DNA from: Candidatus Hydrogenedentota bacterium
Lineage (GTDB): Bacteria; Hydrogenedentota; Hydrogenedentia; Hydrogenedentales; SLHB01
DNA: 22,948 bases
Direction: 5' to 3'
NCBI GenBank assembly: GCA_034408725.1
Contig: JAWXCN010000217.1
Span: forward strand, 1-22,948
Positions 1-17,520 of the stretch are shown here, one piece after another (the stretch's first letter is position 1; each line of letters opens with the position of its first letter). The translations under genes were made by a program, and so were the position numbers. The notes below the pieces were generated by a model. The model was not told where the DNA came from and ran no database searches. It saw nothing but the letters and a program-made list of their open reading frames with translations.

Positions 1-1
1 A

Positions 2-103: not shown

Positions 104-191
104 TGTCGATACCCTCCTAAAGGTGTTTCGGTTGTCCACGATCCGGTGTGTGATACCGGATCGATTCACTCAAACTATCCGCAACGGTATA

Positions 192-208
192 GGCAACCCG
201 CATGCCAA
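192..208 (-). promoter_or_regulatory. Putative sigma54 (-24/-12) promoter of the pilin gene
   Basis: Minus strand reads TTGGCATGCGGGTTGCC: GG-N10-GC spacing, matching TGGCAY-N5-TTGC, about 90 nt upstream of the ATG. Confidence 0.75.
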
Positions 209-815: not shown

Positions 816-831
816 TGGCACGGTTCTGGCT
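816..831 (+). promoter_or_regulatory. Putative sigma54 (-24/-12) promoter of the EPS operon
   Basis: TGGCACGGTTCTGGCT: TGGCAC-N5-TGGC with GG-N10-GC spacing and one mismatch to TTGC. Lies about 50 nt before ATG 882, which has an SD-like GGAGAGGT. Confidence 0.65.
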
Positions 832-881
832 ATAAGGAAGTCGCGTTACGTGGGTGACGCGGCGGAATGGAGAGGTGACCG

Positions 882-1837
882 ATGCTGTCTGAATTACCAG
901 GGGTCGTGAGTATGCCCAATGCAGATCACGAATCAATTCCACTGTTATCCGAAGGGACGAATCCCGTGTTTGCGCTTGTATCGATCCTTCCGAAAAGCAT
1001 GTCCAAATCAACTCCGAGCGATCCGCGAAATGTGGTAGCGCGCATTACACGCGCATCGGCCGGCGCGGCGATGTTCATTGTGATGCAAGTATGCACTGGT
1101 TGCTTGACCACCCCGCCGTCATCGGAGTCATTTCCCGTGGCGTCGGAACCGAAAGTGGTTTTACAACCTGGCGACGTGCTGCAGGTGAAGTTCCTGTACT
1201 GGCCGGAACTGAATGAAGAAAAGCAGGCGATTCGTCCCGTGGAAAGATTTCGCTGCAACTTGTTGGCGATGTTCAAGCCGAAGGGCGCACCCCGGATGAA
1301 TTGCGCACCGAACTTTTAACCATCTATCAAGACAAGCTGATTGAACCGGAAATAGCCGTTGTCGTGAACTCTCTGGACAGCCATCGCGTATATATCGGTG
1401 GCGAAGTGATGCAACCTGGCCTTGTCATGATCAACGGCCGCCTCAGTGCGTTGGAAGCGATCATGCAAGCAGGCGGGTTCAAGAAGCAAAGCGCGAAGAT
1501 GGCAAGCGTCGTGGTTATCCGGCAGCGCGAAGGCAAACAGTACGCCCAGTCGATTGACCTGCGCAGCGCGATTGAATCGCCAGAGAGCAAACCGTTTCTG
1601 CTTGAACCGTATGACATCGTGTTTGTGCCGCGATCCAACATTGACCAAATCGATCAGTGGGTGGATCAGTACATCAACCAGATTGTTCCGCGGTCCGTGC
1701 ATTACAGCTTCAGCCATGAGGTCAATCCTCCTGAGTATTCCAACGGCAATAGCGGCGTTGCGTCGCAATTGCTGAACAACATTGGGACCATCAACTCGGC
1801 GATGCCGCGCCTGGGAGAACTCCAATCAGCCAGGTAA
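882..1837 (+). pseudogene. wza: Polysaccharide export protein (Wza/OPX, poly_export + SLBB) split by a 1-nt deletion near 1239/1240 (real mutation or sequencing error)
   Basis: The first frame gives a possible lipobox (VCTGC) and LQPGDVLQVKF...LNEEKQAIRP. The -1 frame continues GKISLQLVGDVQAEGRTPDELRTEL...VYIGGEVMQPG...LEAIMQAGGF...LEPYDIVFVPRS. Adding one A (ccc gAt gga) restores RPDGKISL. Start could be 882, 912 or 999. Confidence 0.85.
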
Positions 1838-3408
1838 TGAACAATTCATTGCGCGACCTGCTGTACATGGCATTTCGCCACAAGACGAAGATCATGTCGG
1901 TTTTCGTGGTCGTGATGGGCGTGGTGGTCTTGTACACCTATCTTGTGCAGGAGATCTACCGGTCCGACGCAAAAATCCTGATTCGTCTCGGGCGAGAGAA
2001 CCTGTCGGTTGACCCCACCGTTTCCGGCCCGACGCTGTTTCCGTCGCGGGATCGCGCAAATGAAGTGAATTCCGAACTGTCGATCATCAAGAGCCGGGCA
2101 ATCGCGGAAAAGGTCGTCGACGAGATTGGACCGGCGGCATTTCTTGAGAAGCCCGATGAAACTGCCAACATCGAGCCCATATCCCCATCGATGAAAGAGG
2201 CGCAGCAGGAGTTACGCAAGGTCCGGAGGGAAGTTCGCGAAGTGGAGGAGAAAGGAAAGGGGTTGCTCGTCGCGCTTGACCTGACTACGCCGCTGACTGC
2301 ACGCGAGCGGGCTGTTAAGACGCTGATGGATAACCTAGACGTGAGCGTGGAAGCGAAAACAGACATCATCGCATTGTCTTTCGACGCGCCGAGCCGGCCG
2401 TTGGCGCAACGCACGCTCGAACTTCTTCTCACACGCTACCTTGAAGAGCATATCAGGGTGCACTCCGCGCAGGCCACGCCACAGTTCTTCGAGCAGCAAA
2501 CGGAAGAGTTCCGAAACATTCTCGATGACCGCGAAAAAAAGCTTGACACGTTCCGCCGTGAGTTTGGCATTACGACAATGGAACGGCAGAAGGAAGTCCT
2601 CCTGAACCAAATCAGTGGTCTCGAAGCGCAGCTTTCCAATACGCAGGCCAATGCAATGGCGGCGGCCCGGCGAGTCACCGCGCTGGATGGCTCGCTCAAA
2701 GGAAGATCAAAGACACTTGAGGTAAGCCGCACGACGGGTGTAACCAACTTTGCCGCAGACGCATTGAAGGAAAAATTGCTCGACCTGCGCCTGCGTGAGA
2801 CGGACCTTGCCGCGCGGTATCCTGAGACGCACCGGCCTTTGATTGACGTGCGCGGACAAATCGAGGAGGCGGAGTCCACGCTGGCCACGGAAAACGAAAC
2901 GCACACCGAAGTCACAACGGGTGTAGACGATACCTACCAGCAAGTGCAGCTTGCACTGGTCAATGAGCGCGCGAACATGGAGGCGTTGGGTGCGCAGCAG
3001 GCGTCGCTCCAGATCGAACTTGAGAAACAACGCGAAGGACTCGCAGCGCTGTCGAGCCGCGAAATCGAATTGCAAACCTTGGTGCGAGAAGTGGACCTTG
3101 CGGTGAAAGATTACGAGCAATATCGCGACAGTCTTCAGCGCGCCCGTATTTCGTCCGCACTGGATGTTGACAAGGTGTCCAACGTGGGTGTCGTTCAGCC
3201 GGCCACACTTCCGATGGCGCCGGTGCGGCCAAACAAACTGATCAATCTTTTTCTCGGCCTTTTTGTCGCGCTGTTTGCAAGCCTCAGCTTTGCGTTCATC
3301 CTGGATTACTTCGACGATTCGGTGAACACACCGCAACAGGTTGAGCGTTGGGTTGGCGTACCGGTCCTCGTGACGGTTTCCGAAAAGGAGTTTAGAGCAT
3401 GTATCTAA
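1837..3408 (+). CDS. Polysaccharide co-polymerase / chain-length determinant (GumC/Wzc membrane-periplasmic part, no fused kinase)
   Basis: N-terminal TM, SELSIIKSRAIAEKVV motif, long coiled coil, proline-rich VVQPATLPMAPVRPNK before the second TM, then YFDDSVNTPQQVE..GVPVL tail. TAATG overlap with wza. Confidence 0.9.
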   Translation: MNNSLRDLLYMAFRHKTKIMSVFVVVMGVVVLYTYLVQEIYRSDAKILIRLGRENLSVDPTVSGPTLFPSRDRANEVNSELSIIKSRAIAEKVVDEIGPAAFLEKPDETANIEPISPSMKEAQQELRKVRREVREVEEKGKGLLVALDLTTPLTARERAVKTLMDNLDVSVEAKTDIIALSFDAPSRPLAQRTLELLLTRYLEEHIRVHSAQATPQFFEQQTEEFRNILDDREKKLDTFRREFGITTMERQKEVLLNQISGLEAQLSNTQANAMAAARRVTALDGSLKGRSKTLEVSRTTGVTNFAADALKEKLLDLRLRETDLAARYPETHRPLIDVRGQIEEAESTLATENETHTEVTTGVDDTYQQVQLALVNERANMEALGAQQASLQIELEKQREGLAALSSREIELQTLVREVDLAVKDYEQYRDSLQRARISSALDVDKVSNVGVVQPATLPMAPVRPNKLINLFLGLFVALFASLSFAFILDYFDDSVNTPQQVERWVGVPVLVTVSEKEFRACI

Positions 3409-4430
3409 GTTATTACGGGTTCAGCAAAGAGCCATTCCACATTACGCCGGATCCTGAGTTCTTCTTTATGAGTCCGAGCCACAAAGAGGCGCTCGCCGCG
3501 GTGGTGTATGGGGTTGAAAAAGGCCTGGGCTTTGTCGCGATGACGGGCGAAGTGGGGACCGGGAAAACGACCATTTTGCGGGCGTATCTCGAACGTATCC
3601 GCCGTACGCGCATCCGCCCAATTTTTATGTTCAATCCCAACGTCACATTTGAGGCGCTGCTTGTACACCTACTGCGCGAGATGGGCATCGACGGCCGTGG
3701 GAAGTCCGAACGCTGGATGCTGCACTACCTGATGCGCTCGCTGGTCCACGAAGTGGGAAAAGACCGTCGCGTCGTCCTGATCATAGACGAAGCGCAACAC
3801 ATGCCGAACCAGACGCTGGAAAAGCTCCGTTTGATATCGAACCTCGAAACGATGGACTACAAGTTGATGCAGATTGTCCTCGTGGGCCAGCCCGAACTGG
3901 ACGTGAAGCTTGGCGATTACACGATGCGCCAGATTCGGCAGCGGGTCGCGGTGCGCGCAAAACTTCGCGCGCTGACACCAAAAGAAGGCATTGAATACAT
4001 CAAGCATCGTATGGCGCACGCTGGCGCAAACCCCGATAGCGTGTTTACCCCCGCGGCGATCAAAGCAATTGTAAAGGCGTCCGAAGGGTATCCCCGCGCG
4101 ATCAATATCCTCTGTGACAACGCGCTTGTTACCGGTTTGGGCTATCAATGCAAGCCGATTCCGCCGAAGATTGCGCGCGAGGTCATTCGTGAATTCCGCG
4201 GGGCGCGGCACCTGCCGAACCTTCGCTGGATTGGGGCGACTGCCGCTGGGGCGGCCATCGCATCGGCGGCATTTATGGCACCGATGTTTTGGAACCCGAC
4301 AACTTCCGAGGCCTCCGCAGCGCCGCATACAAATGTAGTGCATCCTGTTGAAAGCACGCAGGAAGTTGTGCGCACCGTCGAGCCAGTGGCGATGAAGCTG
4401 AACACCACCGGTTATGAGGTGGTTCAATGA
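3399..4430 (+). CDS. ExeA/GspA-family AAA ATPase (EPS-locus-associated type)
   Basis: MYLSYYGFSKEPFHITPDP N-terminus, Walker A GEVGTGKT, Walker B VLIIDEAQ, LVGQPEL, GYPRAINILCDNAL, and a C-terminal hydrophobic segment. Confidence 0.92.
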   Translation: MYLSYYGFSKEPFHITPDPEFFFMSPSHKEALAAVVYGVEKGLGFVAMTGEVGTGKTTILRAYLERIRRTRIRPIFMFNPNVTFEALLVHLLREMGIDGRGKSERWMLHYLMRSLVHEVGKDRRVVLIIDEAQHMPNQTLEKLRLISNLETMDYKLMQIVLVGQPELDVKLGDYTMRQIRQRVAVRAKLRALTPKEGIEYIKHRMAHAGANPDSVFTPAAIKAIVKASEGYPRAINILCDNALVTGLGYQCKPIPPKIAREVIREFRGARHLPNLRWIGATAAGAAIASAAFMAPMFWNPTTSEASAAPHTNVVHPVESTQEVVRTVEPVAMKLNTTGYEVVQ

Positions 4431-5149
4431 GCCGCATTTACGAAGCGCTGGAGTATGCCGGCCTTGCACCGGTCGAAGAACCGGCCAACGAAGTAGAAGT
4501 AAAACTTTCTCTTCCGCGACCGTTGCCGGCATTCGAGGAGAAGTTGCTTGGTCTGTTTCAGAGGATCGAAGGTTTGCTCGACAGCAGAAGTGGGAGAGTT
4601 GTTTCCTTTGCTGGGCTGAGCGATAGCGATGACAGCTCGACCTATGTGTTGGAGATGGCCCGTGTCGGAGCCAACCGGCTGAACAAGCGCGTACTGGTGT
4701 TGGCGACGTACCAATCCGGGTGCGCCAGGAAGTTACAAGAATGCGGACTGTCGAACGGATGGGAAGGAATTACCCACAGCGCCCGTTCGATCAATGAAGC
4801 CGTATTCCAGATTTCAGACCCGGCCATTGCGATCAGCCAGCTCACGACTTCAAAGGACAGCCTGTCCACCTTGCTTACGTCCCCGCGCTTCATGAACACG
4901 CTGCGACTGATGCGCAAACGGTACGACTGGATTCTTGTCGATACACCGGCGCTTGGCAATGGCCTTGACGCCGCGCTTGTATCGCCCATCGCAGACGGCA
5001 CTGTCGTTGTGGTCAATGCCGGCAAAACGCGCTGGCAAGTCATTCGGCACGCCGTGGATCAGATTGCGGCGCAGCAGGGGAACGTTCTTGGGGTCGCGTT
5101 GAACCGTCGGCGCTACATGATTCCCGATTTCATCTACCGGCAACTCTAA
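4427..5149 (+). CDS. CpsD/CapB-like BY-kinase-fold protein with degenerate Walker A/A'
   Basis: MSRIYEALE start, Walker B region YDWILVDTPA, ADGTVVVVNAGKTR, NVLGVALNRRRYMIPDFIY end. No GEGKS/T. ATGA overlap with the ATPase. Confidence 0.8.
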   Translation: MSRIYEALEYAGLAPVEEPANEVEVKLSLPRPLPAFEEKLLGLFQRIEGLLDSRSGRVVSFAGLSDSDDSSTYVLEMARVGANRLNKRVLVLATYQSGCARKLQECGLSNGWEGITHSARSINEAVFQISDPAIAISQLTTSKDSLSTLLTSPRFMNTLRLMRKRYDWILVDTPALGNGLDAALVSPIADGTVVVVNAGKTRWQVIRHAVDQIAAQQGNVLGVALNRRRYMIPDFIYRQL

Positions 5150-5178
5150 GTCACGCCGTCAGCAGGGGAGAACTAATC

Positions 5179-5700
5179 ATGGTTGCAAAACCACAAACCG
5201 ATTCCGCGTTGGTACGGCTGTACCGTTTAATGGCGCGCGTGCGCGAAGCCGAAAAGGCGCGGGCGACTGGTCTTTTGGCAGAAGACGCGTTTGAGGAGCA
5301 ACTGACGCTCGAACGCGCGCGCGCCGATCGTTCCGGTCAGCCGTTCGTTCTGATTATTTTCACGGTACACGGTGTCGATAACGAGGCGCAGGCCAACCTC
5401 GCCGAACGCGCATTGGCTGGAGCGCTATTCGAGCGCACGCGCATAAGCGATGCTAAAGGCTACTACGGAGGGCAGGTCGCGGCAATTCTTCCCTACACCA
5501 CGAAACACGATGCGGCCCACGTGCTCGATCCGCTCGATGGCGTATTCCGTAAACAACTCGCGGCAGAGGGCCTTCAAACGCTTCCGGGACCGCGGTTGTC
5601 CTTTGTCATCTATGAATACCCCGACGACGAACGGAAGCGGTCTGGCACGCGCGCCGTGCGCGGCCACGAATCAGTAGTGAGGTTGCACCATGTCTCCTAG
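5179..5700 (+). CDS. Degenerate GGDEF-like domain protein
   Basis: TGLLAEDAFEEQLTLERARADRSGQPFVLIIF resembles the GGDEF N-terminal helices. RISD-AKGYY-GGQVAAILPYT aligns with RxxD-x5-GGDEFxxLLPxT. SD GGGGAG upstream. Confidence 0.7.
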   Translation: MVAKPQTDSALVRLYRLMARVREAEKARATGLLAEDAFEEQLTLERARADRSGQPFVLIIFTVHGVDNEAQANLAERALAGALFERTRISDAKGYYGGQVAAILPYTTKHDAAHVLDPLDGVFRKQLAAEGLQTLPGPRLSFVIYEYPDDERKRSGTRAVRGHESVVRLHHVS

Positions 5701-6400
5701 TTACGAAATGGCGTTGAGGAATGACGATCCGCTAATGGTGGCCGCGATACAGCAACGCGAGGATGTATTGGCGGAATGTGGTCATGCGTTGTTTGCCCGG
5801 CCATTTCCGCTGTGGAAACGCGCAATGGACATTGCGGGCGCGTTGGCGGGCATCGCTGCATTTGGTCCAGTGATGATAGCGGTTGCGTTAATCATCAAAA
5901 TTACATCTCCAGGGCCAGTCCTGTTCACGCAAAAGCGGGGCGGCATGGCGGGGAAGGTGTTCGACCTTTACAAATTCCGCAGCATGTCGCTTGACGCGGA
6001 GGCGCGCAAAGCCGAGTTGATGAAATTCAACGAACGCAGCGGCGTTGCGTTCAAAATGACCAACGATCCACGCATTACGTCCGTGGGGAAATTCCTCCGC
6101 AAAACGAGTCTTGACGAATTGCCGCAACTTTTCAATGTGCTAAAAGGTGACATGAGTATTGTCGGACCGCGGCCATTGCCTGTCAGCGAAGAGGAAGCCT
6201 ATTCATTCTGGCACTGGCGAAGGGTGGACGTGAAGCCTGGCCTAACGTGCATCTGGCAGGTGACAAGCCGGCATGATAAAGATTTTGATCGCTGGGTTCG
6301 CCTCGACCTCGAATATATCCGAAAGCGTTCTTTGGTGCTCGATGTATCGCTCATCCTGCGCACCATTCCTGCAGTGTTGTTTCAGCGCGGCGCTCACTAG
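5690..6400 (+). CDS. Priming sugar (phosphoglycosyl) transferase, Bac_transf family, small form
   Basis: KRAMDI, SPGPVLFTQKRGG, LYKFRSM, NDPRITSVGKFLRKTSLDELPQLFNVLKGDMSIVGPRP, VKPGLT..WQV. Confidence 0.95.
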   Translation: MSPSYEMALRNDDPLMVAAIQQREDVLAECGHALFARPFPLWKRAMDIAGALAGIAAFGPVMIAVALIIKITSPGPVLFTQKRGGMAGKVFDLYKFRSMSLDAEARKAELMKFNERSGVAFKMTNDPRITSVGKFLRKTSLDELPQLFNVLKGDMSIVGPRPLPVSEEEAYSFWHWRRVDVKPGLTCIWQVTSRHDKDFDRWVRLDLEYIRKRSLVLDVSLILRTIPAVLFQRGAH

Positions 6401-6410
6401 CGGGTATCCG

Positions 6411-7727
6411 ATGGGACAGGCAGCGGAAATAGGTCTCGTATCCACAGGTCGCACGAATTGGCTGGCGCGCACGGCGGATTCCAATCCACTTATGTCCAGG
6501 GGGATGCTAAGTATTACCGACCAGATAATTGCCAGCGCGACGACGTTTCTTACGGGAGCAGTGATTGCTCGACTGTGCGCGAAAGAAGAGTTTGGGCTCT
6601 ATGCGTTGGGGTTTAGCCTGCTTGCATTGCTCATGACGCTCCAATCGTCGCTCATTACAACTCCCCTGATGATTGGCATGCCGCGGCTCGCCGGGGATTC
6701 ACTTCGCAGGTTTTCGGGCAGTTCTCTTCTGCACCAAGGCGTGTTCGGTATCGCAGCAACGATAGCCGTGCTAATCGCCGCGGCTTGTGTCTCTGCATGG
6801 AACCCTTCACTTGGGGTGACGCTCGCCGCTGTTGGCGCCGTACTTTCATTCCTGCTGCTTCGAGACTACATCCGCCAGGCATGCTTCGCACGGCTGGCCT
6901 TCGGGCAGGCGCTGGTTTCAGATATCGCGCTTGCCTTATTGCAGATCGGCGCACTGGGTCTGCTTGTATTCACTGGCACGTTAAACGCCGCAAGCGCGTT
7001 TATTGCGTTCGGTATATCCTGCGCGATTTCCTCCGCGTTTTGGCTGGCGCGCACGCGCTCTGAGCGTATCGTCGAACCCGGCGTGGCAGTGATAGATTTC
7101 CAACGCACATGGTCCTCCGGTAAATGGCTGGTGGCGAGTGGATTGGTCTGGGCGGTCAGCATGAACCTGTATGCGTGGATCGTCGCGGCGTTTCACGGCA
7201 CGGCTTCCGCTGGAGTATGGGCGGCTGCGTTTGGCGTGATGACGCTAGTTAACCCGCTTATGCTGGGTATACAAAATTTTCTTGGGCCGCGCATCCTTCA
7301 TGCATTGCCGCTGGGCGGCATTTCGATGCTGAGCCGCGTTGTGCGTGATTCTGCCGTCGTGTTTTGCGCCGCGCTCCTTGTATTCAGCATGTGCATGTGG
7401 TTTTTCGGCGATGCTCTCATTGCGAACATTTATGGCGCAAAGTATGCCGGCAACGGTTTACTGGTTTTTGTGCTTGCGCTGAATGCTTCTGTTTTGACAG
7501 TTGGATTCGCCGTGTCCCGGGGACTGTTCGCGCTCGAACTGGCACACACCGATTTTTACGTCAACCTGATTGCGTTTGTGTGCTTTCTGGCGCTTGGGGT
7601 TGCATTCGTCCGGGTTGCCGGCCCGCTTGGGGCTGCAATCGCGCAATTGCTGACCAACGCAGTCGCGTCCGGCGCGCGCGTTCTGGTTTTCGCGCGCCAT
7701 ACGCGGCTTGCCGGGGCGGCAGCATAG
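6411..7727 (+). CDS. wzx: Wzx-type oligosaccharide flippase
   Basis: Many hydrophobic segments, with DQIIASATTFLTGAVIARLCAKEEFGLYAL typical of MOP/PST flippases. Start set at ATG 6411, just after the upstream stop; the track start at 6273 overlaps the transferase. Confidence 0.82.
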   Translation: MGQAAEIGLVSTGRTNWLARTADSNPLMSRGMLSITDQIIASATTFLTGAVIARLCAKEEFGLYALGFSLLALLMTLQSSLITTPLMIGMPRLAGDSLRRFSGSSLLHQGVFGIAATIAVLIAAACVSAWNPSLGVTLAAVGAVLSFLLLRDYIRQACFARLAFGQALVSDIALALLQIGALGLLVFTGTLNAASAFIAFGISCAISSAFWLARTRSERIVEPGVAVIDFQRTWSSGKWLVASGLVWAVSMNLYAWIVAAFHGTASAGVWAAAFGVMTLVNPLMLGIQNFLGPRILHALPLGGISMLSRVVRDSAVVFCAALLVFSMCMWFFGDALIANIYGAKYAGNGLLVFVLALNASVLTVGFAVSRGLFALELAHTDFYVNLIAFVCFLALGVAFVRVAGPLGAAIAQLLTNAVASGARVLVFARHTRLAGAAA

Positions 7728-9119
7728 ATGAATCCTTCGGTGGCACACCTCGTTGACTCTGAATCTCGGCGCATGCCCTGGGTCATGTTTGTCTTGCTGA
7801 CGGTGGCTTTTTTTATTGCGTTGCACGATCCTGTGCGTTCCTATTCGATTGGCGATGATTACCTGCCTTCCGAAGACACGCTGCAACACGATGCTTCCGA
7901 AGGAAACGCGAAGCGCCAGGTCGGTTTTCTCATGGTAGGCGCGTTCGGATTGATGATGTTGGCGATGCCCGGGCGGCGTCCCATTCAGACGAATGGTTTG
8001 CTCGCCGGACTGATTGTGTTCTTTTGCGCATGGCTTGTGCTGAGTATTACATGGTCGGATGATCGCAGTCTTACGGCGCGCCGGCTCGTCGTTATCGCCA
8101 CACTCACTTCCGGGGCACTTGGCGTAGCGGCGCGCATGTCTCCCCGCGAAATCATGCATCTCGTGTTGTTCAGCTCGATGGCTTATCTTCTTGCCGGCAT
8201 CGCCTCTGAGATCGCGCTCGGCTCATTCACACCGACGACCGAGCGTTACCGCTTCGCCGGCACGATTCATCCGAATAACCAGGGCGTCAACTGTTCGCTG
8301 ATTGTGTTGTCATCGATTGCCGCGTTCCAGACCGAAAAACGCTGGCGCGGGTTGTATGTTGCTTGCGCGGCATTCGCAATGGTTTTCCTGATGCTGACGA
8401 AATCGCGCACTTCATTGCTCAGCTTTCTTGTAACGCTCGCGCTATACCTGATCGTGGTGTATGCCGGCTCTCCCCGGTTCATGTTTGCCTGCTGCGTTGC
8501 CGCGACCGCCGGGTTTACGGTGTTGCTCGTCGCCAACGGCTCGGTTTTGCCGGCATTACAGCAGGGCATTCTTCTCGGCAGAAGCGATCAGGACCTTGAT
8601 GGCGCGATGGCGCTCACGGGCCGGTTGCCGCTGTGGGAACAACTGATCGAGTATGCGTCCGTCCGCCCGATCCAGGGCTACGGTTATGGAAGCTTCTTTA
8701 CGGTCGAACACATCCGCGAAATTACCGCGCGCCAGGGCTGGCCAATTGCGGAATGCCACAACGTGTTTCTTGAAGTGCTCATGGGCCTTGGCCTTGTCGG
8801 TATGTGTACCTACGCCGTCATTCAGGTCGTGGGATACGCGAAATCTATTTCGTATTTCCGCGGCACGGGGGATCCGCGCTATGCGTTTCTGGGAAGTCTG
8901 CTGATGTTGGGAGTGGTGGGTGGTTTGACAGAATCGACACTTCTGGTTCCCACCATGCAGACGTTCGTGCAGTTTCTCACACTATCGGTATTCGGATTGC
9001 AGGCGCTCCCGGACGCGATGCGCGGGAAAGTCCGCGGAATCGACACCGGTAAATTCAGTGCGCCACGCATGCACACAACCGGCGGACGCATTGTCCCATT
9101 TCCGGTGGAGCATACATGA
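7728..9119 (+). CDS. O-antigen ligase family / Wzy-like polysaccharide polymerase
   Basis: Multi-TM protein with LSITWS, GTIHPNNQG, LTKSRTS, LTGRLPLW, RPIQGYGYGSF and HNVFLEVL..LGLVG (Wzy_C motifs). Confidence 0.88.
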   Translation: MNPSVAHLVDSESRRMPWVMFVLLTVAFFIALHDPVRSYSIGDDYLPSEDTLQHDASEGNAKRQVGFLMVGAFGLMMLAMPGRRPIQTNGLLAGLIVFFCAWLVLSITWSDDRSLTARRLVVIATLTSGALGVAARMSPREIMHLVLFSSMAYLLAGIASEIALGSFTPTTERYRFAGTIHPNNQGVNCSLIVLSSIAAFQTEKRWRGLYVACAAFAMVFLMLTKSRTSLLSFLVTLALYLIVVYAGSPRFMFACCVAATAGFTVLLVANGSVLPALQQGILLGRSDQDLDGAMALTGRLPLWEQLIEYASVRPIQGYGYGSFFTVEHIREITARQGWPIAECHNVFLEVLMGLGLVGMCTYAVIQVVGYAKSISYFRGTGDPRYAFLGSLLMLGVVGGLTESTLLVPTMQTFVQFLTLSVFGLQALPDAMRGKVRGIDTGKFSAPRMHTTGGRIVPFPVEHT

Positions 9120-10318
9120 ACACTGCGGCAAGCTATAGCGTATTGGAGGCGGCCTCCGTAACGTCGCGGACGGCCGCGCCTCGATTGATCCTCGCAAGCG
9201 GGTTCCAGCCAGATTACGTGCGCGAGATCGCCAACGCGCACGCCCGCCTTGGTTCTACTGTTCATGTCGTGGGCGGAGACATGCATGAGCAACAGACTTA
9301 CCACCCCAACGTTTCTTTATTGAACCTGCGCGGGCGCGACGAGCGAGAAAACAGTACCTTGCGCGAAATCGCGAAGCTTGCGGGGTACTTATCGCGACTT
9401 GTTCGTACTGTTTGCACGTCTGATGCACCCATTGTGTACGACGTGAGTATCGGACGGCCACTGTTGCGGTGCTTGTTGATGTATCCACTTTTCCGCCTGG
9501 CCGGCAAGCGGATTGTGTACACCGCGCACAACGTGTTGCCGCATGACGCGGACACTTTTGCTAACCGGATGGTGTACTGGTTTATCTACCGCCTGCTGGC
9601 AGACTCTATTGTCGTTCATGGGCAATCGTTGAAAGAGCGATTAATAACGGAATTTAATGTTCAGCCCGAGCGTGTCCATACCGTGGCGCACGGAACCTAT
9701 CATCCCCGCGACACCGAGGCGATCACCAAGGCAACCGCGCGCAAGCAACTAGGCATCGCGCCAAGAGAGCGCGTGTTGCTCTGTTTCGGACTTCAACGCC
9801 ATTACAAGGGGACTCATTTTGTCCTCGAAGCATTGAACGACTACTGCGCAGCGGACCTGGTTTTGGTTGTGCGTGGACATGCGCCGGACGAGGCGTACAA
9901 GGAGTTTCTTACGGCACAAGTGCGACGCCACTGCGGTGGCCTGCGCATCAATGCCCGGCTAAAAGCTGTCTCAGACGCGGAGATGGAAGTGGTTTTCAAG
10001 GCCGCGGACATTGTGTTGCTGCCCTATCTTGAAGGCAGCCAGAGCGGCATCAAATTCATGGCATACGCCTATGGACGCCCGGTACTCGCCAGCGAAACCG
10101 GCAGTCTGCGCGAGTACATCCAACCCGGTATCTCTGGCGAGACATTCACCATGGCAGACCCCGTGGCGTTTCGGACTGCTCTCGAGCGCATGCTCGCGCA
10201 CCTTGCGGACTACAGCGACGAAAAAATACTTGCGTATGCGCGTGAACACTGTTCGTTCGACGCGGCGGCGACACAGGTCGCCGCGCTTTGTGGCCGGCTG
10301 TCTAAAGAAGGAGGGTGA
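9116..10318 (+). CDS. Glycosyltransferase family 4
   Basis: VYTAHNVLPH, FGLQRHYKG, AADIVLLPYLEGSQSG, AYAYGRPVLAS. ATGA overlap with the polymerase. Confidence 0.88.
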   Translation: MNTAASYSVLEAASVTSRTAAPRLILASGFQPDYVREIANAHARLGSTVHVVGGDMHEQQTYHPNVSLLNLRGRDERENSTLREIAKLAGYLSRLVRTVCTSDAPIVYDVSIGRPLLRCLLMYPLFRLAGKRIVYTAHNVLPHDADTFANRMVYWFIYRLLADSIVVHGQSLKERLITEFNVQPERVHTVAHGTYHPRDTEAITKATARKQLGIAPRERVLLCFGLQRHYKGTHFVLEALNDYCAADLVLVVRGHAPDEAYKEFLTAQVRRHCGGLRINARLKAVSDAEMEVVFKAADIVLLPYLEGSQSGIKFMAYAYGRPVLASETGSLREYIQPGISGETFTMADPVAFRTALERMLAHLADYSDEKILAYAREHCSFDAAATQVAALCGRLSKEGG

Positions 10319-10319
10319 T

Positions 10320-11516
10320 ATGAAAGCCCTGCACATTCACAACCATTATCGCTACCGTGGCGGCGAAGATGTCATGTTCGAGCGTATTGGCAACCTTCTA
10401 CGGGCAAACGGGCATAAGGTCGTAACATTCGAGCGGCGCAGCAGTGATATCGCCGGTATTTCCGGGAAAATGCAGGCGCTTGCGTCCAGCGTGTATTCGT
10501 TGCGCGCAAAAGCCAGTGTGAAGGAATTGCTTGCCGCCGAAGAGCTTGACGTCGTTCACGTACATAATCTTTATCCGCTCATTTCCCCGTCCGTGTTGGA
10601 AGCGTGTGCCGAACGCGGGGTCCCCGTTGTCATGCGCTGCCCCAACTACCGCCTTGAATGTCCGACGGGTGTACTCATGCGCAAGGGACGCGTGTGTACT
10701 GAATGCAGCGGCGGCCGGGAGTACCGTTGCGCAGTGAACAACTGCCGCGGCAATGTGCTGGAGAGCGTTGCGTTCGCCGCTCGCAATACGTTGACCCGCA
10801 CGCTGGGTCTGTTCAAAAAGCACGTGAGTGTGTTTGCACCTCCGAGCCATTTTGTGAAATCTCGCCTTGTCGCTGCGGGCTTTCCGGAGGACCGGATTAC
10901 CGTTGTGCCGAACATGGTTCCAATCCCGCGGACGTTCGGGAATGCGGCGCAGGGCGAATACATTGCGTTGGCCGGACGATTCAGCGAAGAGAAGGGTATC
11001 GAAACGCTGATAGAAGCGGCGAAGCGTTTGCCGAAGGTTCCAATACGCATTGCAGGAGAAGGCCCGCTTGGGGAGCGCCTGCGCGCAGGAGCACCCTCCA
11101 ATGTTACTTTCGTTGGCCAACTTTCGCGCGAGGACCTCGGTGAGTTCTATTCCCATGCGCGTGCCTGCGTCGTCCCCAGCCGCTGGTATGAAGCATTTGG
11201 CCTCGTCGCGGCAGAGGCCATGAGCTACGCGGTCCCCGTCATCGCAACCAACATGGCGGGTCTGGCGGAAATCGTGGATCACGGCGAAACCGGTTTTCAT
11301 TTTACCGCTGACAATGCAGCCGAACTTGCCGGACACATTGACACCCTTTGGAATCAGCCTGCGCTGGCGCGGGCGATGGGAATGGCCGGCCGCAAAAAGG
11401 TGGAACGCGAGTACAGCGAACAATCGTATTACCTGCGCCTAATGGGTGTTTATGAAACTGCGTTGGGCACAAAGGCCGCGGTGGCGCCGTCCGCCGAACT
11501 GGCCAAAAGCGCGTAA
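10320..11516 (+). CDS. Glycosyltransferase family 4 with Cys-rich insert
   Basis: Start [17 protein letters not shown] (SD AAGGAGG), [37 protein letters not shown] (E-x7-E). The track's extension to 10011 overlaps the previous gene. Confidence 0.92.
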
Positions 11517-11545
11517 TGGCCAATGCGAAACAAGGAGTGCGCAAG

Positions 11546-12619
11546 ATGAAAGTGGCAATTATCACGGGGTCCGGAGGCCTTATCGGGGCGGAAGCGGCCC
11601 GCTTTTTCAGCAAGCGCGGATTCTATATTGTCGGCATTGACAACAACATGCGCGCAGAATTTTTCGGCGAGGAAGCGTCCACTGCCTGGTCCGTTGACCA
11701 GCTTAAATCAACTTTGTTGAATTACAGACACTACTGCGCCGATATTCGCGACATCGCGGCAATTCGGCTCATCTTCGAAGAGTACGGCTCGGACATTGCT
11801 CTCGTCGTACACACTGCCGCACAGCCGTCGCACGATTGGGCAGCGCGCGCACCGCTCGTTGATTTTGGCGTCAATGCTTGCGGCACTATCAATCTGCTTG
11901 AATGCACGCGCCAATGCGCGCCGGACGCGGTCTTTATTTTCACTTCGACAAACAAGGTGTACGGCGACCGGCCGAACACTTTGCCACTGCGCGAACTGGA
12001 CGAGCGCTGGGAAATTGCGCTGGGCCACGAATACGAGGATGGCATTCGCGAGTGCATGTCCATAGACAACAGCACGCACTCCGTTTTCGGCGCATCGAAA
12101 GTCGCCGCTGACATCATGGTCCAGGAGTATGGCCGGTATTTCAATATGAAGACGGGGGTGTTCCGTGGCGGATGCCTCACGGGTCCGGGCCATTCCGGCG
12201 CGGAACTGCATGGATTTCTTGCATACCTCATGAAATGTTGCGTCGCGGGCCGGACGTACAAGATTTACGGCTACAAGGGCAAACAGGTCCGGGACAACAT
12301 TCACAGCTACGATCTCATTCAAGCGTTCTACGAGTTCTATAAACGCCCGCGACGAGGCGAGGTCTACAACATCGGCGGTGGCCGCTACAGCAACTGCTCG
12401 ATGCGGGAAGCCATCGCCCGCTGCGAATCCATTTGTGGTAAGAAAATGGACACGGTTTATTTGGATGATAACCGGGTTGGGGACCATATTTGGTGGGTAT
12501 CCGGTCTGCAGAAATTCGAATCGCATTTCCCCGATTGGCGTATCACTTACGATGTCCCGCAGATCCTTAAAGAAGTCTATGCTGCCAATATCGAACAGCG
12601 CGAAGCGATTCCCGCATGA
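11546..12619 (+). CDS. NAD-dependent epimerase/dehydratase (extended SDR), CDP-paratose 2-epimerase-like
   Basis: [51 protein letters not shown] 8 nt before ATG 11546 (alternative start 11516). YxxxK appears as FGASK. Confidence 0.88.
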
Positions 12620-13908
12620 TTCCAGCACGCAAAAAGCGAGCTCTTCGTATTCTGTTGGTCTCGAATCACCGGCGCTTCAAAATTAATTTCCGCGCACACC
12701 CGTGGGCCAGTGAACTTGCGGCGCGGGGACACGATGTGGACGTCATGTGCCACGCGAACACGGAGCGGTGGCGCACGAAGATTGAAAAGGTTGAGAACTT
12801 TCGAATCATCGAAAGCCCCGATCTGCTTATCGGTGCGCTTCGGCAAGGCTGGGACCCGGTGTGCGCCTACCGGCGGCTGCGTTTCCTTCGCCAGGAAAAC
12901 AAACAGTACGACCTCATTCACTGTCTTGACACCAGGCTTGCAGTTGTTTGGCCCGCGCTCGCATATGCGCGCGAAAAGAAGATTCCCATTGTCAGCGACT
13001 GGATCGATTGGTGGGGGCACGGGGGGCTTATCAAGGAACGGCGTCCGCTCTGGTATCAATGGCTGTTTGCGGGAGTCGAAGTTTTTTTTGAGGAATACTA
13101 TCGGAACAAGCTCGACGGACTCACCACCATCAGCCATGCCCTCGCCGAGCGTGGCGCAGGGCTGGGCGTGCCCCGTGAACGTTGCGTGGTCGTCCCCGGC
13201 GGCGCAAACCTCCGCAATTTTGCGCGCGTGCCGAATCAAGCACAAAGCCGTCGCATGCTCGGGATCGCCGAGGATGCGCCCGTGGTGTGCTTTTCAGGGC
13301 TTGACGTTTTGATTGATCTTCCAATGGCGGTCAAAGCGTTCGAGATTTTGCGCGAGACTGACAAACGCATAGTCTTGCTCTTGGTCGGGCCAACGGAGCG
13401 CGACGCACGCAACATGGTCTCCAATCGCGACTCGCTTAAGGGCATCAAAGCCGTTGGGCCGGTTGCGTACAAGGAACTGCCAAGCTATTTGTCCGCCGCC
13501 GACGTATTTCTCATGCCCTACACCCAGAAAGTCAGCAATGTTGGCCGTTGGCCCAACAAGATTGGCGACTACATGTGCATTGGCCGGCCGACGATCTCGA
13601 ATCCAGTGGGAGAAGTGAAACGGCTTTTCGAGCGGTTTCCCATCGGCGGGCTCTGCGAAGAAACACCCGAGGGAATGGCCGCGGCGGCGCGGGACTATCT
13701 TGATGATGGGGCGCGCGCAGTGCGAACGGGGATGTACGCGCGAGAGGTGGCTGAAAAAGTCTTCTCATGGGAAAAACTTATTGTCGGACTTGAGAATTGG
13801 TACTACGCGCTCGTCGAAGGGCGCTTGGGTGCGGCGCGACAGCCGAAACCCGCGTCACCAGCATTACTGGTTCATCACCCCATAAACACCGCCGGCGCGC
13901 GGCGATAA
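12616..13908 (+). CDS. Glycosyltransferase family 4 (divergent)
   Basis: [57 protein letters not shown] overlap with the SDR gene. Confidence 0.85.
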
Positions 13909-13923
13909 GAAAGGATTGCGTTC

Positions 13924-15297
13924 ATGAAGATTGCCGTCATCGGGAGCGGATACGTTGGGCTCGTCACCGGAACGTGTTTCAGCGAAGTGGGGCACGAAGT
14001 CACCTGCGTTGACATTGATGCCGCGAAGATTGAAGCGCTTCGGTTTGGACGGATACCGATTTACGAACCCGGGCTCGACGAAATGGTTGCGCTCAACGTT
14101 GAGCAAGGGCGTCTGTCATTCACGACGGATCTGAAAGCGGCCATCGAACGCGCGCTCTTTATTTTCATTGCGGTAGGCACGCCGCCACTGGAGGATGGCA
14201 CTGCCGACCTCAAACATGTTCTCGCCGCCGCTGGTTCCATCGGCGAGTACATCAACGGGTACAAAATTGTGGTCAACAAATCGACCGTACCGGTTGGCAC
14301 CGCGGACAAGGTACGCAACACCATTGAAGCAAAGTTGCGCGAGCGGACCATGCGGCTGGACTTTGATGTTGTCTCGAATCCTGAGTTCCTTCGCGAAGGT
14401 TGCGCGATCGATGACTTTATGAATCCAGACCGCATTGTGATCGGGTGTGGCGATTGCCGCACCGAAGTCTTGATGAAGGAGCTGTATGCAAGCTTTATCC
14501 GCGACGGCCACCCGGTATTGACCATGGACCCGATGTCAGCGGAAATGACCAAGTACGCCGCGAACGCCATGCTGGCTATGAAGATTTCGTTTATCAACGA
14601 GATTGCAACGATATGCGAGCGCGTAGGAGCGAACGTCGAGGACGTGCGCAACGGCATCGGCGCGGACAGCCGCATCGGGTATCAATTTATTTTCCCCGGC
14701 ATCGGCTATGGCGGCTCCTGTTTCCCGAAAGACGTGCAGGCCCTCGTCAGCACGGCGCGCGGCGCGGGGTACGATCCGCAGATTCTGAGGGCAGTCGAAG
14801 AAGTTAATTCCAGCCAGAAAACCTCGCTCATGCGTAAGGTGATGGCGTATTACAACAATGATCTTTCGGGCAAACGCTTCGCGCTTTGGGGCCTGTCGTT
14901 CAAACCGGAAACGGACGATGTCCGCGAGGCGCCGTCGCTCGTGTTGATTGATTCCTTGTTGAAAGCCGGCGCCGAAGTTCAGGTGTACGATCCGAAAGCG
15001 GCGCGTGAAACACAACGGTACCTGGGTCCTCGCGCCGGTATCACATACGCAGAAGACAGTTATAGCGCACTTCAAAGCTGCGACGCGCTGCTATTGGTGA
15101 CCGAGTGGTCCTATTTCAAAAACCCAGATTTTGATCGAATGAAGGCGTTGTTAAACACGCCCGTAATATTCGATGGCCGCAACGTATTTTCGACCGAACT
15201 GATGAAGATGCTTGGCTACGACTATTTCTCAATTGGACGCCCGCCAGTTTTGTCGCACTCACAAGCGTGGGCATCACGGACGAAAGCGGCTGTATAG
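13924..15297 (+). CDS. ugd: UDP-glucose 6-dehydrogenase
   Basis: GSGYVG, FIAVGTP, NKSTVPVGT, SNPEFLREG, AEMTKYAAN, GYGGSCFPKD (catalytic Cys), FKPETDDVREAPS, IFDGRN. Confidence 0.96.
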   Translation: MKIAVIGSGYVGLVTGTCFSEVGHEVTCVDIDAAKIEALRFGRIPIYEPGLDEMVALNVEQGRLSFTTDLKAAIERALFIFIAVGTPPLEDGTADLKHVLAAAGSIGEYINGYKIVVNKSTVPVGTADKVRNTIEAKLRERTMRLDFDVVSNPEFLREGCAIDDFMNPDRIVIGCGDCRTEVLMKELYASFIRDGHPVLTMDPMSAEMTKYAANAMLAMKISFINEIATICERVGANVEDVRNGIGADSRIGYQFIFPGIGYGGSCFPKDVQALVSTARGAGYDPQILRAVEEVNSSQKTSLMRKVMAYYNNDLSGKRFALWGLSFKPETDDVREAPSLVLIDSLLKAGAEVQVYDPKAARETQRYLGPRAGITYAEDSYSALQSCDALLLVTEWSYFKNPDFDRMKALLNTPVIFDGRNVFSTELMKMLGYDYFSIGRPPVLSHSQAWASRTKAAV

Positions 15298-15321
15298 CGG
15301 GCATTGTAAGGCTACGCGAAC

Positions 15322-16308
15322 ATGAAAAACCGGCCAACCATAAGTGTTGTTTTGTGTACCTATAACCGGGCAGACATTCTGCAACGCGCGTTGGACTCCT
15401 TGTCGTTTCAACGATGCTGCGGCGACATGTCTTACGAAATTATAGTCGTAGACGATGGTTCGACGGACGCGACGGAAGATGTCGTGCGCGAAGCCCGCAG
15501 GTGTACCAGCCATCCAGTCGCGTACATCCGGGAAAATGGAATCGGGATTGCGGCAGCGCGCAATGCAGCGGTCCGGCATGCGCGAGGCGAATGGCTGGCC
15601 TTTACCGACGATGATCAAATAACTGAACCGGCATGGTTGACAAACCTGTTGCGTGCGCAGAAGCAAACCGGCGCGGATGTTGTTGGTGGAGCCCGCAGGT
15701 TAGAACTTCCCGATCATGTTCTCGATCAGATACCGACCCGCATACGCCTTATCCTTGGCGAGATCGCTCCTGACGGCGCGGTCCGCGAGTGTTCCCGGAA
15801 CGATCTCGTATGCACTGGCAACTTGTTGGTCCGCAAGGGCGTGGTTGATGAACTCGGCGGGTTCGATGCCGCCCTTACGCAGGGTGGTGAGGACACCGAT
15901 CTTCTCATGCGGCTACGGCGCGCAGGGTACGCCTGTTGGTTTACACCACACGCAATCGTGCGCCATATCATCCCTCAGTATCGCCTGGAGCCGGCATACC
16001 TGCTCTGGGCATCGCTCCGTGGTGGCGACTGTTATGCGCATCGCGACGTTCGTGAATGGGGATTGCCCTGGACGTGGCTGGTATGTGTTCTTCGTATTGC
16101 CCATACAGCGACGAACCATGTCCCCGCGTTAATAATTGCCTTGCTGCTAAGGCGTTCACATGAGGTGCTTTCACGCCGCTGCAGCCTGTGGCGTACGTGG
16201 GGATATGCGAACCGCGTACTGCGGATGAGCATACCGCGATTTCCGCAACGTGCCAGTTCGACCAGCCCCATCGACTTTCGCAACGAGCGAAAGCTCTTTA
16301 ACGGTTAG
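15322..16308 (+). CDS. Glycosyltransferase family 2
   Basis: SVVLCTYNRA, IIVVDDGSTD, AARNAA, AFTDDD, GGFD...GEDTDL. Confidence 0.93.
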   Translation: MKNRPTISVVLCTYNRADILQRALDSLSFQRCCGDMSYEIIVVDDGSTDATEDVVREARRCTSHPVAYIRENGIGIAAARNAAVRHARGEWLAFTDDDQITEPAWLTNLLRAQKQTGADVVGGARRLELPDHVLDQIPTRIRLILGEIAPDGAVRECSRNDLVCTGNLLVRKGVVDELGGFDAALTQGGEDTDLLMRLRRAGYACWFTPHAIVRHIIPQYRLEPAYLLWASLRGGDCYAHRDVREWGLPWTWLVCVLRIAHTATNHVPALIIALLLRRSHEVLSRRCSLWRTWGYANRVLRMSIPRFPQRASSTSPIDFRNERKLFNG

Positions 16309-16323
16309 GAGTACGGAATTCTC

Positions 16324-17520
16324 ATGCGCGTCGTTCAGATCATGAATTGGCACCGGTTCGGAGGCGGGTCCGATTTTATGGCGCGCGCCACGGCTGACGT
16401 TCTCCGTGCCAACGGTCACGATGTTTTCATGATGACCAGTGACAGTAGCGTATACGACCAATCCATCGTGGGTCGCGCCGCGGCCTCGGTGCGCGGGGTG
16501 TACTCTTTCGCGAGCCGCAAAGAGATGCGCGAAATTCTTAGGGATTTTATTCCTGACATCGTTCACGTCCATGAAGTCTATCCCGCGCACTCGCCCTGGG
16601 TTTTGCGCGACTGCAAGGAAGCCGGGGTGCCCGTGGTAATGACATGCCACGATTTCCGCTTGACCTGCCCTGTGGCGACGCATATCAGCAATGGACAACC
16701 CTGTGATCGATGCGTTCAGAACTCGACACTCTCCTGCTTTACCCAAAACTGCCGTGGTAACAGGGTGGAAAGCGCCGCCTTTGCTTTGCGCGGTGGCATA
16801 GCGAAATCCCTTCGGCTATTCGAAGGTAACATCGATTTGTTTTGCGCGCCGAGCCAGTTTGTCCAGGAGAAATTAATTGGTAGCGGATTTCCGCGCGACA
16901 AGTTTCGGGTAGTCCCAAATATGGTGCGCGCGACATCGCGCACCGTGGACGCCGGTTTGGGCCGCTATGCTGCTTTCGCGGGGCGCGTTGCACCTGAAAA
17001 GGGCATCGGCACGCTCATGGAGGCTGCATGGCGCACGGCCATGCCGCTGCACATCGCCGGCCACGCTACCGTATCAGGGTTGTCCGTCCCGCCGAACGTG
17101 CAGTGGTTGGGCCATCTCGAGGGAGTACAACTCGCGGAGTTTTATGGTGGCGCGCGTTTTCTGGTGGTACCGAGTCCGTGGTTCGAAGCCTTCGGATTGG
17201 TCGTGGCCGAGGCCATGATGATGGGTCTCCCCGTTATCGCCGCGAACGCGGGCGCACTACCCGAATTGGTCGAGCACGGCGTCACCGGCTATTTATTCCG
17301 GCCCGGCGACGCGCAGGACTTGGCGCGTCTAATGCTCACGCTCTGGCGGGACGCGGGTCTGTGCCGCAGTCTCGGGCTGGCAGGTCGCGCAAAAGCGTTG
17401 CGCACCTACACTGCAAGCCGGTACTACGCGAACCTCGTTGCGGCATACAAAGCTGCCGCGCAATGCGCGCACGCGCAAGCGCCACACGGCGCCAACACGC
17501 GCAAACCGCAGGTAGTATAA
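16324..17520 (+). CDS. Glycosyltransferase family 4 with Cys-rich insert (paralog of 10320-11516)
   Basis: PDIVHVHEVYP, GRVAPEKG, PSPWFEAFGLVVAEA, GLPVIA, ELVEHGVTGYLF. SD AGGAG. Confidence 0.92.
   Translation: MRVVQIMNWHRFGGGSDFMARATADVLRANGHDVFMMTSDSSVYDQSIVGRAAASVRGVYSFASRKEMREILRDFIPDIVHVHEVYPAHSPWVLRDCKEAGVPVVMTCHDFRLTCPVATHISNGQPCDRCVQNSTLSCFTQNCRGNRVESAAFALRGGIAKSLRLFEGNIDLFCAPSQFVQEKLIGSGFPRDKFRVVPNMVRATSRTVDAGLGRYAAFAGRVAPEKGIGTLMEAAWRTAMPLHIAGHATVSGLSVPPNVQWLGHLEGVQLAEFYGGARFLVVPSPWFEAFGLVVAEAMMMGLPVIAANAGALPELVEHGVTGYLFRPGDAQDLARLMLTLWRDAGLCRSLGLAGRAKALRTYTASRYYANLVAAYKAAAQCAHAQAPHGANTRKPQVV

Follow-up and report, generated by a model that had tools for sequence, protein, structure and literature searches.

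Introduction

The locus described here raises a plain question: what does a 173-residue protein do beside the priming phosphoglycosyl transferase (PGT) of an exopolysaccharide (EPS) operon, when its gene runs into that of the enzyme? The two genes lie at positions 5179 to 6400 of a 22,948-nucleotide contig of a Candidatus Hydrogenedentota bacterium (JAWXCN010000217.1, assembly GCA_034408725.1), the whole of which is called the window below. An earlier note on this DNA had seen in the smaller protein a catalytically dead GGDEF domain that keeps the inhibitory site (I-site) of diguanylate cyclases, and had proposed it as a switch through which cyclic di-guanosine monophosphate (c-di-GMP) gates the first step of EPS synthesis. 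Our analysis, built on profile searches, structure prediction and gene context, puts the probability that the 173-residue protein is a c-di-GMP receptor subunit of the PGT at roughly 0.55.

The priming PGT is a logical point of control because it commits scarce undecaprenyl phosphate, and control of synthase-type polysaccharide systems by c-di-GMP is textbook knowledge. The post-translational control of Wzx/Wzy pathways is described as poorly or incompletely understood in passages of a 2025 paper (PMC12802240).

Results

A GGDEF descendant stripped of its catalytic parts

The open reading frame (ORF) at 5179..5700 on the + strand, which encodes the 173-residue protein (P0001), is more than a chance reading, since it has 17 close homologues at 43-87% identity and 222 related library representatives at E<=0.001. 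The close homologues of this protein and of the neighbouring transferase are named Candidatus Hydrogenedentes, and two of the 17 carry the JGI name 'GGDEF domain-containing protein'. Two profiles were searched against the PDB, one of 18 close homologues (A1) and one of 117 stand-alone family members (A2). All nine A1 matches at E<=10 were diguanylate cyclases or GGDEF domains, with 3ign the best at E=7.6e-6, and A2 reached 3ign at E=1.4e-14, GcbC (5euh) at 5e-11 and WspR at about 1e-9. A2 had 22 matches at E<=0.01, and 18 of these bear the name of a diguanylate cyclase, a GGDEF protein or WspR. Two rows labelled 'uncharacterized' are SadC (4wxo) and the PAS-GGDEF-EAL part of PA0861 (5xgb), as named through the Foldseek listing; 4wxw, which carries no name, and two 'ammonium transporter' chains aligned in the C-terminal part also matched. 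A search of NCBIfam with the protein itself returned SiaD only, below threshold (E=0.0038, 16.6 bits against a cut-off of 290).

The AlphaFold2 (AF2) model of the protein (predicted local distance difference test score, pLDDT, 80.7; predicted template modelling score, pTM, 0.73) has a palm-like beta-alpha-beta-beta-alpha-beta core of about 120 residues. A Foldseek search of the PDB with this model gave 65 matches at E<=0.001, and each of the 37 rows listed is a GGDEF protein (E 5.5e-7 to 2.7e-4, template modelling score normalised to the query 0.45-0.61). Taken together, the profile matches and the fold matches place the protein by descent in the PF00990 superfamily, as a descendant of a GGDEF domain. 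Ahead of the palm domain the model has an N-terminal helix (residues 7-30, 5197..5268, +), and the best Foldseek match, SiaD (7e6g), as well as the coiled-coil cyclase DgcB (6ttr), aligned over 176-189 columns; the helix is thus a possible stalk or dimerisation helix, comparable to the stalks of SiaD, DgcB and WspR. The C-terminal tail (residues 152-173, 5632..5697, +) is predicted to be disordered, with pLDDT below 50.

That the protein is catalytically dead is well founded by alignment and model, because it has lost the DxD motif, the segment that binds guanine, the GG(D/E)EF loop and the phosphate-binding part at the C-terminus, and with them every catalytic feature of an active cyclase. 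The roles of these segments in binding metal, guanine and phosphate are known from work on PleD and WspR. Aligned with 3ign and WspR, the protein has T62-V63-H64 (5362..5370, +) where beta1 ends and cyclases carry the metal-binding DxD, and a deletion of six residues after beta1 removes the guanine-binding segment. The canonical cyclase domains in our alignment have Asp at both DxD positions in 12 of 13 cases, whereas the family varies there. The earlier note had read FTVHG (F61-T62-V63-H64-G65) as the counterpart of DIDxF; the loss of the metal-binding Asp holds, and the register was one residue off. What is left of the GG(D/E)EF hairpin is G97-G98-Q99-V100 (5467..5478, +), which HMMER alignments against GGEEF make one residue shorter in this clade, and positions 97-99 show no conservation in the family. 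The claimed loss of the catalytic DEF is therefore borne out as a GGQV with a one-residue deletion in an unconserved hairpin. Finally, order in the modelled chain ends with beta4, near residue 150, and there is no C-terminal helix of the kind that binds phosphate. Judged by sequence and model, the domain is truncated and not merely mutated, which goes beyond what had been noticed before.

Both halves of the I-site are kept

The domains found with the A1 model were aligned, 118 from stand-alone proteins and 31 from fusions to the PGT domain Bac_transf (149 non-cyclase domains), along with 13 canonical cyclase domains. The primary I-site motif, RxxD, is R88-I-S-D91 in the window protein (5440..5451, +); it is invariant in A1 and aligns with the RxxD of 3ign and of WspR. 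The motif is present in 117 of the 118 stand-alone domains, and in the fusion domains the Arg is found in 30 of 31 and the Asp in 31 of 31. G94 is as constant as R88 and D91, and the four best-conserved non-gap positions across the 149 domains are D91 (0.99), G94 (0.99), R88 (0.99) and R51 (0.98). The stretch in which the earlier note saw the motif, residues 88-101, indeed reads RISDAKGYYGGQVA and maps to 5440-5481. Its comparison of an RxxD-x5-GG spacing with that of a cyclase stands in part: the RxxD-x5-G distance equals that of WspR, and the GG pair is not conserved, with the second Gly (G98) varying even among close homologues.

The fourth of these positions, R51 (5329-5331), closes the helix segment E45-R46-A-R48-A-D50-R51 (5311..5331, +) and corresponds to the secondary I-site Arg of WspR, R198. 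This assignment comes from a HMMER alignment to WspR chain 3i5b_A, in which the family's RxxD Arg falls on chain residue 74 and R51 on chain residue 30; if chain residue 74 is R242, as the R242xxD245 motif of WspR implies, chain residue 30 is R198. R51 is present in all 117 rows of A2, in 117 of the 118 stand-alone domains, in 29 of the 31 fusion domains and in 36 of the 37 fusions found among relatives of the transferase (described below). As reported in passages of PMC2270323, the R242xxD245 of WspR and R198 from a neighbouring GGDEF domain together hold c-di-GMP, and the R242A and R198A variants purify without nucleotide. By this alignment the family has kept both halves of the I-site, RxxD and the second Arg, and has lost all else; the conservation of the second Arg adds a residue that the earlier note had not considered. 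The resulting signature of the family is ER.R..R ... R..D..G[WY].

The last position of the signature, residue 95 (5461-5463), is an aromatic that adjoins the I-site: Trp in 97 of the 118 domains that stand alone and in 26 of the 31 from fusions, and Tyr in the Hydrogenedentota clade. The cyclases have an Arg at this place, ahead of the GG(D/E)EF hairpin, in 12 of 13 domains.

Association with the priming transferase

Three independent lines of sequence evidence point to the PGT as the partner of the GGDEF-derived domain: fusions among its own relatives, fusions among the relatives of the transferase, and recurrence of the gene pair in related genomes. For the first, 149 representatives were scanned with Pfam (the best 150 of the 222, with one close homologue left out). 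In 22 of them the GGDEF-derived domain lies N-terminal to Bac_transf; the others comprise 12 ordinary cyclases at the weak end, two short proteins with a marginal GGDEF match and 113 proteins without an assigned family. Eight of the 22 fusions (P0043, P0060, P0070, P0072, P0075, P0078, P0116 and P0159) carry two or three tandem copies of the domain, each of which keeps RxxD. Any match to GGDEF or GGDEF_2 was seen in only 6 of the 22 fusions. Two copies without a PGT occur in P0067, P0073 and P0095 (242-283 residues), which are perhaps fragments. One of the 22 fusions, P0133, joins an N-terminal GGDEF-derived domain to CoA_binding_3 and a truncated Bac_transf, the layout of a large WbaP-like PGT, so that large PGTs may take part in the association as well.

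From the side of the transferase (P0002), which has 7949 relatives at E<=1e-20, the best 120 were inspected. Of the 41 longer than 300 residues, 37 carry the GGDEF-derived domain at the N-terminus (family hidden Markov model E 1e-17 to 1e-42), and none of the 79 shorter relatives does. R..D..G is retained in all 37, and GGDEF in none. Three of these fusions carry the name Tepidisphaeraceae or Phycisphaerales, and the former family is part of the Planctomycetota, a phylum other than Hydrogenedentota. The split pair of the window is collinear with one of the fusions, P0236, of which residues 2-131 correspond to P0001 residues 10-150 and residues 198-399 to P0002 residues 34-235. An AF2 model of P0236 (pLDDT 81.9, pTM 0.73) shows both domains well folded. 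A separate search for longer proteins near P0001 found none of 5681 candidates fused at E<=0.001, which is weak evidence, as the fusions surfaced by other routes.

A scan of genome loci with patterns of the close clade returned two loci, L001 and L002, both from Hydrogenedentota metagenome-assembled genomes. In each, the gene order of the window from wza to the first glycosyltransferase of family 4 (GT4) is kept and the two genes overlap by 11 nucleotides, at 5511-6050 and 6040-6747 in L001 and, in L002, with the first gene ending at 6119 and the second at 6109-6825. Identity to the proteins of the window is 50-70% for the GGDEF-derived partner and 74-75% for its transferase. Four homologues of each partner also share identical longest-contig sizes (69453, 13059, 4632 and 5935), which is a weaker hint. 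The one tblastn match of P0001 among plasmids, in Azospirillum (E=8e-4), was set aside as a non-member of the family, being a canonical Hpt-receiver-GGDEF cyclase with an intact GGEEF.

Structure prediction of P0001 with P0002 and two c-di-GMP molecules gave a score of 0.45 (runs 0.45, 0.45 and 0.24) against 0.03 for the best of three controls, with a contact agreement between runs of at least 53% and a partner pLDDT of at least 76; the score covers the pair and not the placement of the ligand. The mark for this score is reached by 116 of 157 solved complexes and by 2 of 215 mismatched pairs, a calibration that applies roughly, as our run used its own alignments and a ligand. The prediction gives weak support to the pairing and adds little to it, because the fusions had already given a high prior.

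The earlier note had staked its proposal on a predicted GGDEF fold, on an RxxD shared among homologues, on fusion or adjacency to Bac_transf and on a predicted complex of the pair. The fold and profile matches, the near-constant motif, the fusions from both sides, the same overlap in both related loci and, weakly, the pair prediction all came out in its favour, and nothing at the level of sequence spoke for abandoning it.

The transferase and the overlap

The second gene of the pair (5690..6400, +) encodes the 236-residue transferase. It matches Bac_transf (PF02397) over residues 43-230 at E=6.3e-66, with 221.7 bits against a cut-off of 27. The WbaP, WcaJ and EpsZ profiles of 445-476 positions match through their last 190 or so positions only, and TIGR03025 through positions 256-444 only (E=1.1e-83). 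The layout is that of a small monotopic PGT: a cytosolic N-terminal extension of about 40 residues (1-40) is followed by a hydrophobic helix that begins near residue 43 and then by the catalytic domain. D142-E143 (6113-6118) in the motif DELPQ, which by the work on PglC we take to be the catalytic dyad, is invariant in the 74 rows of the PGT alignment (A3). Since the profiles of large PGTs match in their C-terminal parts alone, the enzyme is by sequence a small PGT without the WbaP-type N-terminal transmembrane region or CoA_binding_3 part, in line with the earlier observation that the multi-spanning N-terminus of WcaJ and WbaP is missing. A small PGT of this kind is ordinary in itself.

Both ORFs and their overlap at 5690-5700 (+), where the stop of the first gene and the start of the second share 11 nucleotides, agree with the original description. 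We read the overlap as translational coupling of the two genes. A Shine-Dalgarno-like GAGG lies at 5679-5682, seven nucleotides ahead of the PGT ATG. One caveat on the start is a second in-frame ATG at 5708, with which the genes would lie seven nucleotides apart and not overlap; all three loci (the window, L001 and L002) have the first ATG, and the second has no counterpart in L001. A single gene split by a sequencing frameshift was rejected as an explanation, since L001 and L002, at 50-70% identity, likewise have two separate genes that overlap by 11 nucleotides.

The extreme C-terminus of the GGDEF-derived protein (5632-5700, +), in which R168, L169 and S173 are invariant in A1, overlies the GAGG and the PGT ATG. 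Conservation there may be imposed in part by the overlapping translation signals and not by protein function.

The surrounding operon

The genes around the pair form one + strand cluster, upstream over 1301..5149 and downstream over 6411..18321. With a polymerase (Wzy), a polysaccharide co-polymerase (Wzz) and an outer-membrane polysaccharide export protein (Wza) beside the PGT, the operon is, from its domain content, a Wzx/Wzy-type EPS pathway. Upstream lie a Wza-like SLBB export protein (1301-1837, +; SLBB 6.2e-14), a Wzz/GNVR chain-length protein (1837-3408, +; Wzz 1.6e-8, with GNVR), an AAA ATPase resembling the XrtA/PEP-CTERM-associated ATPase (3399-4430, +; TIGR03015 E=4.9e-73, below cut-off) and a 240-residue P-loop protein resembling bacterial tyrosine (BY) kinases (4427-5149, +; TIGR01007 E=3.3e-15, below cut-off; CBP_BcsQ E=0.0023), which ends 29 nucleotides before the GGDEF-derived gene. 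The window has no recognisable exosortase or PEP-CTERM protein. Downstream are a multi-spanning membrane protein and possible flippase (6411-7727, +; Polysacc_synt_3 at only E=0.11), a Wzy_C polymerase (7728-9119, +; Wzy_C 1.2e-16), GT4, GT2 and WecG glycosyltransferases and an epimerase within 6411..18321 (+), and a UDP-glucose 6-dehydrogenase (13924-15297, +). A promoter and terminator scan of positions 1-9200 found no excess over shuffled expectation, and the only Rfam match in the window is a tRNA (21608-21682, -).

Several features of these neighbours deserve mention in their own right. The Wza-like gene is apparently split between two frames (882-1319 and 1301-1837, +); the intact homologues in L001 and L002 (319 and 273 residues) match one piece in one frame and the other in another, changing frame near 1241-1286. 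A frameshift, an error of assembly or a pseudogene could account for the split. The BY-kinase-like protein, inspected by eye, has no GK[ST] Walker A motif and no C-terminal tyrosine cluster, is conserved in L001 and L002 at 53-68% identity, and may be a pseudo-kinase. The longest ORF for the multi-spanning protein (6273-7727) overlaps the PGT gene by 128 nucleotides, and the in-frame ATG at 6411, 11 nucleotides past the PGT stop, is the more likely start; a flippase (Wzx) is expected at this position, where Pfam gave no significant match. Beyond the cluster, a metallophosphoesterase (19192-20829, +; TIGR03768 E=7.4e-59, below cut-off) has a marginal match to SpdA, a cyclic-nucleotide phosphodiesterase (E=0.0067).

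Discussion

A proposed model for c-di-GMP gating of EPS initiation

The most likely account of these data is that the 173-residue protein is a minimal, dead descendant of a GGDEF domain whose sole remaining function would be its I-site, formed by R88xxD91 and an R51 acting in trans. The protein would be made in stoichiometric coupling with the PGT and would be a physical partner of that enzyme, which presumably moves the first sugar phosphate onto the lipid carrier of the Wzx/Wzy-type pathway. From the WspR comparison we infer that the ligand would be intercalated c-di-GMP, clamped by the RxxD of one domain and the Arg of a second. The dinucleotide could in this way bridge two GGDEF-derived domains, contributed here by two subunits, perhaps with the aid of the N-terminal helix 7-30, and in the fusions by tandem copies or by two chains, and such pairing might act directly on catalysis by altering the arrangement or accessibility of the PGT, and thus gate initiation. 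The likely effect would be activation at high c-di-GMP, by analogy with other polysaccharides under c-di-GMP control; the sign is a guess.

Several observations weigh against this account. Pfam assigned no family to the 173-residue protein even at E<=10, the gathering score of PF00990 was not reached, and Pfam likewise leaves 113 of the 149 representatives unassigned at E<=0.001. Because members were collected by their resemblance to a query that is itself best conserved around the RxxD, the conservation counts are biased upward; the canonical cyclase domains drawn in at the weak end also carry RxxD in 13 of 13 cases. The score of the predicted pair lies in a weak band: 18 of the 157 solved complexes, and both of the mismatched pairs that reached the mark, did so at 0.60 or below. 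In the P0236 model a low-confidence linker of 52 residues (135-186) lies between the domains; because of this linker, the GGDEF-derived domain may be tethered to the PGT rather than rigidly docked. Domain and Rfam scans also found no diguanylate cyclase, phosphodiesterase or c-di-GMP riboswitch within the window, an absence that is neutral in a contig of 23 kb.

The conserved residues could be explained without any nucleotide if the protein were an accessory subunit, that is, a structural or oligomerisation module of the PGT that, for example, anchors it to the polymerase, co-polymerase or export machinery, with R51, R88 and D91 serving protein-protein contacts or the stability of the fold. 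Such a role would suit a domain from which all catalytic parts have gone; fusion and coupling to the PGT are matters of observation, unlike ligand binding, and the pair prediction passes only weakly, with the share of the ligand left out of the score. We nevertheless consider it unlikely, as all three c-di-GMP-binding residues of WspR have their counterparts among the best-conserved positions, in a domain that elsewhere drifts to 23-35% identity, and as tandem copies in 8 of 22 fusions fit ligand-bridged pairs better than an anchor. RxxD is moreover dispensable for the GGDEF fold, and many active cyclases do without it.

A related reading keeps the pocket and changes its occupant. The domain could be a receptor for another anionic ligand, such as pGpG, GTP, (p)ppGpp, another cyclic dinucleotide, a UDP-sugar or a polyprenyl phosphate head group, and so serve feedback or substrate sensing. 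The truncation of the domain, the remodelling of the site at position 95, where an aromatic replaces the Arg of the cyclases, and the lack of c-di-GMP enzymes in the window would all accord with this. We know of no case, however, in which the constellation of RxxD and a trans-acting Arg binds something else. That constellation is documented as a c-di-GMP site in passages of PMC2270323, and the known degenerate GGDEF domains with an intact RxxD are c-di-GMP receptors, PelD being cited as such in part of PMC12802240; a different ligand thus seems quite improbable. A target elsewhere in the operon, for example the BY-kinase-like protein, the AAA ATPase or the chain-length or export complex, is very improbable, to judge from the fusions; on that view gene order would be the only link to the PGT. 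The operon is tightly packed and the gene does sit between the BY-kinase-like gene and the PGT gene, but the overlap is with the PGT gene and the gap is on the upstream side. What disfavours this idea is that every fusion seen is to Bac_transf, in 22 of 22 fused representatives and in the 37 among the best 120 PGT relatives, and that no fusion to a kinase, ATPase or Wzz protein occurs among the 149 proteins scanned.

Comparison with known systems

A c-di-GMP receptor subunit of the kind proposed here would resemble several known systems and coincide with none of them. PelD, cited in part of PMC12802240, and PopA, PssE, CdgA and BcsE are degenerate GGDEF receptors that bind through the I-site; they share with the proposed receptor a dead active site, a retained RxxD and a non-catalytic partnership that couples c-di-GMP to a polysaccharide glycosyltransferase. 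These receptors differ in serving synthase-dependent or other targets and in having extra domains (transmembrane and GAF, or receiver); the domain described here is a truncated core of about 120 residues that is invisible to Pfam, keeps the trans-acting Arg and has as its partner the priming PGT of a Wzx/Wzy-type pathway. With the I-site of WspR and PleD it has in common an RxxD five residues before the hairpin and an Arg in the helix ahead of it, the residue that supplies the trans half of the site and allows c-di-GMP to bridge two GGDEF domains, as described in passages of PMC2270323. WspR and PleD are active enzymes that use the I-site for feedback, whereas the protein of the window has nothing left to inhibit, so that the I-site would be its sole function.

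The closest parallel on the side of the transferase is EpsW-EpsZ of Myxococcus xanthus, in which, according to parts of PMC12802240, a small partner protein activates a PGT. Both cases involve a small single-domain signalling protein that binds, or in the present case would bind, an initiating monotopic PGT and so exerts post-translational control of EPS. EpsW differs in being a phosphorylated receiver domain on a large WbaP-like PGT, where it is proposed to promote the PGT dimer; the pair described here has a GGDEF-derived partner, a presumed nucleotide signal and a PGT of the small class. Small-class PGTs are said in the same source to function as monomers, and to be able to carry regulatory domains such as receivers (PMC12802240, citing O'Toole, Imperiali and Allen 2021). 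A census of small-PGT fusions based on Pfam would mostly miss the GGDEF-derived domain, because so few of its fusions show a GGDEF or GGDEF_2 match. In Caulobacter crescentus, c-di-GMP binds the holdfast glycosyltransferase HfsJ, a comparable post-translational action on a glycosyltransferase step of a lipid-carrier-based adhesin pathway (PMC11481889, in part). As presented in those parts of the paper, HfsJ binds the dinucleotide itself, is not the priming PGT and involves no GGDEF-derived receptor.

Implications

Full-text searches that paired GGDEF or c-di-GMP with PGT terms, judged by title and abstract, found no paper on the pairing of a GGDEF-derived domain with a PGT. The family has named members in both Hydrogenedentota and Planctomycetota; further leads, from the Atlas, are to Acidobacteriota, Thermodesulfobacteriota and Bacillota. 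We suggest, tentatively, that the window protein could be the founding example of a widespread and unannotated group of PGT-associated I-site receptors, stand-alone or in one to three fused copies, which would make the initiating PGT a direct post-translational target of c-di-GMP through ligand-bridged pairing.

A compact receptor domain that occurs in several phyla, either in one chain with a small PGT or co-translated with it, would amount to a concrete and testable mechanism, with three targets for point mutation (R51, R88 and D91) and natural single-chain versions for biochemistry. The signature ER.R..R ... R..D..G[WY], which standard domain libraries miss, would allow the re-annotation of many 'hypothetical proteins' beside PGT genes. 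If the proposal is true, the control that c-di-GMP exerts over synthase-type polysaccharides would extend to the first committed step of the commonest polysaccharide pathway.

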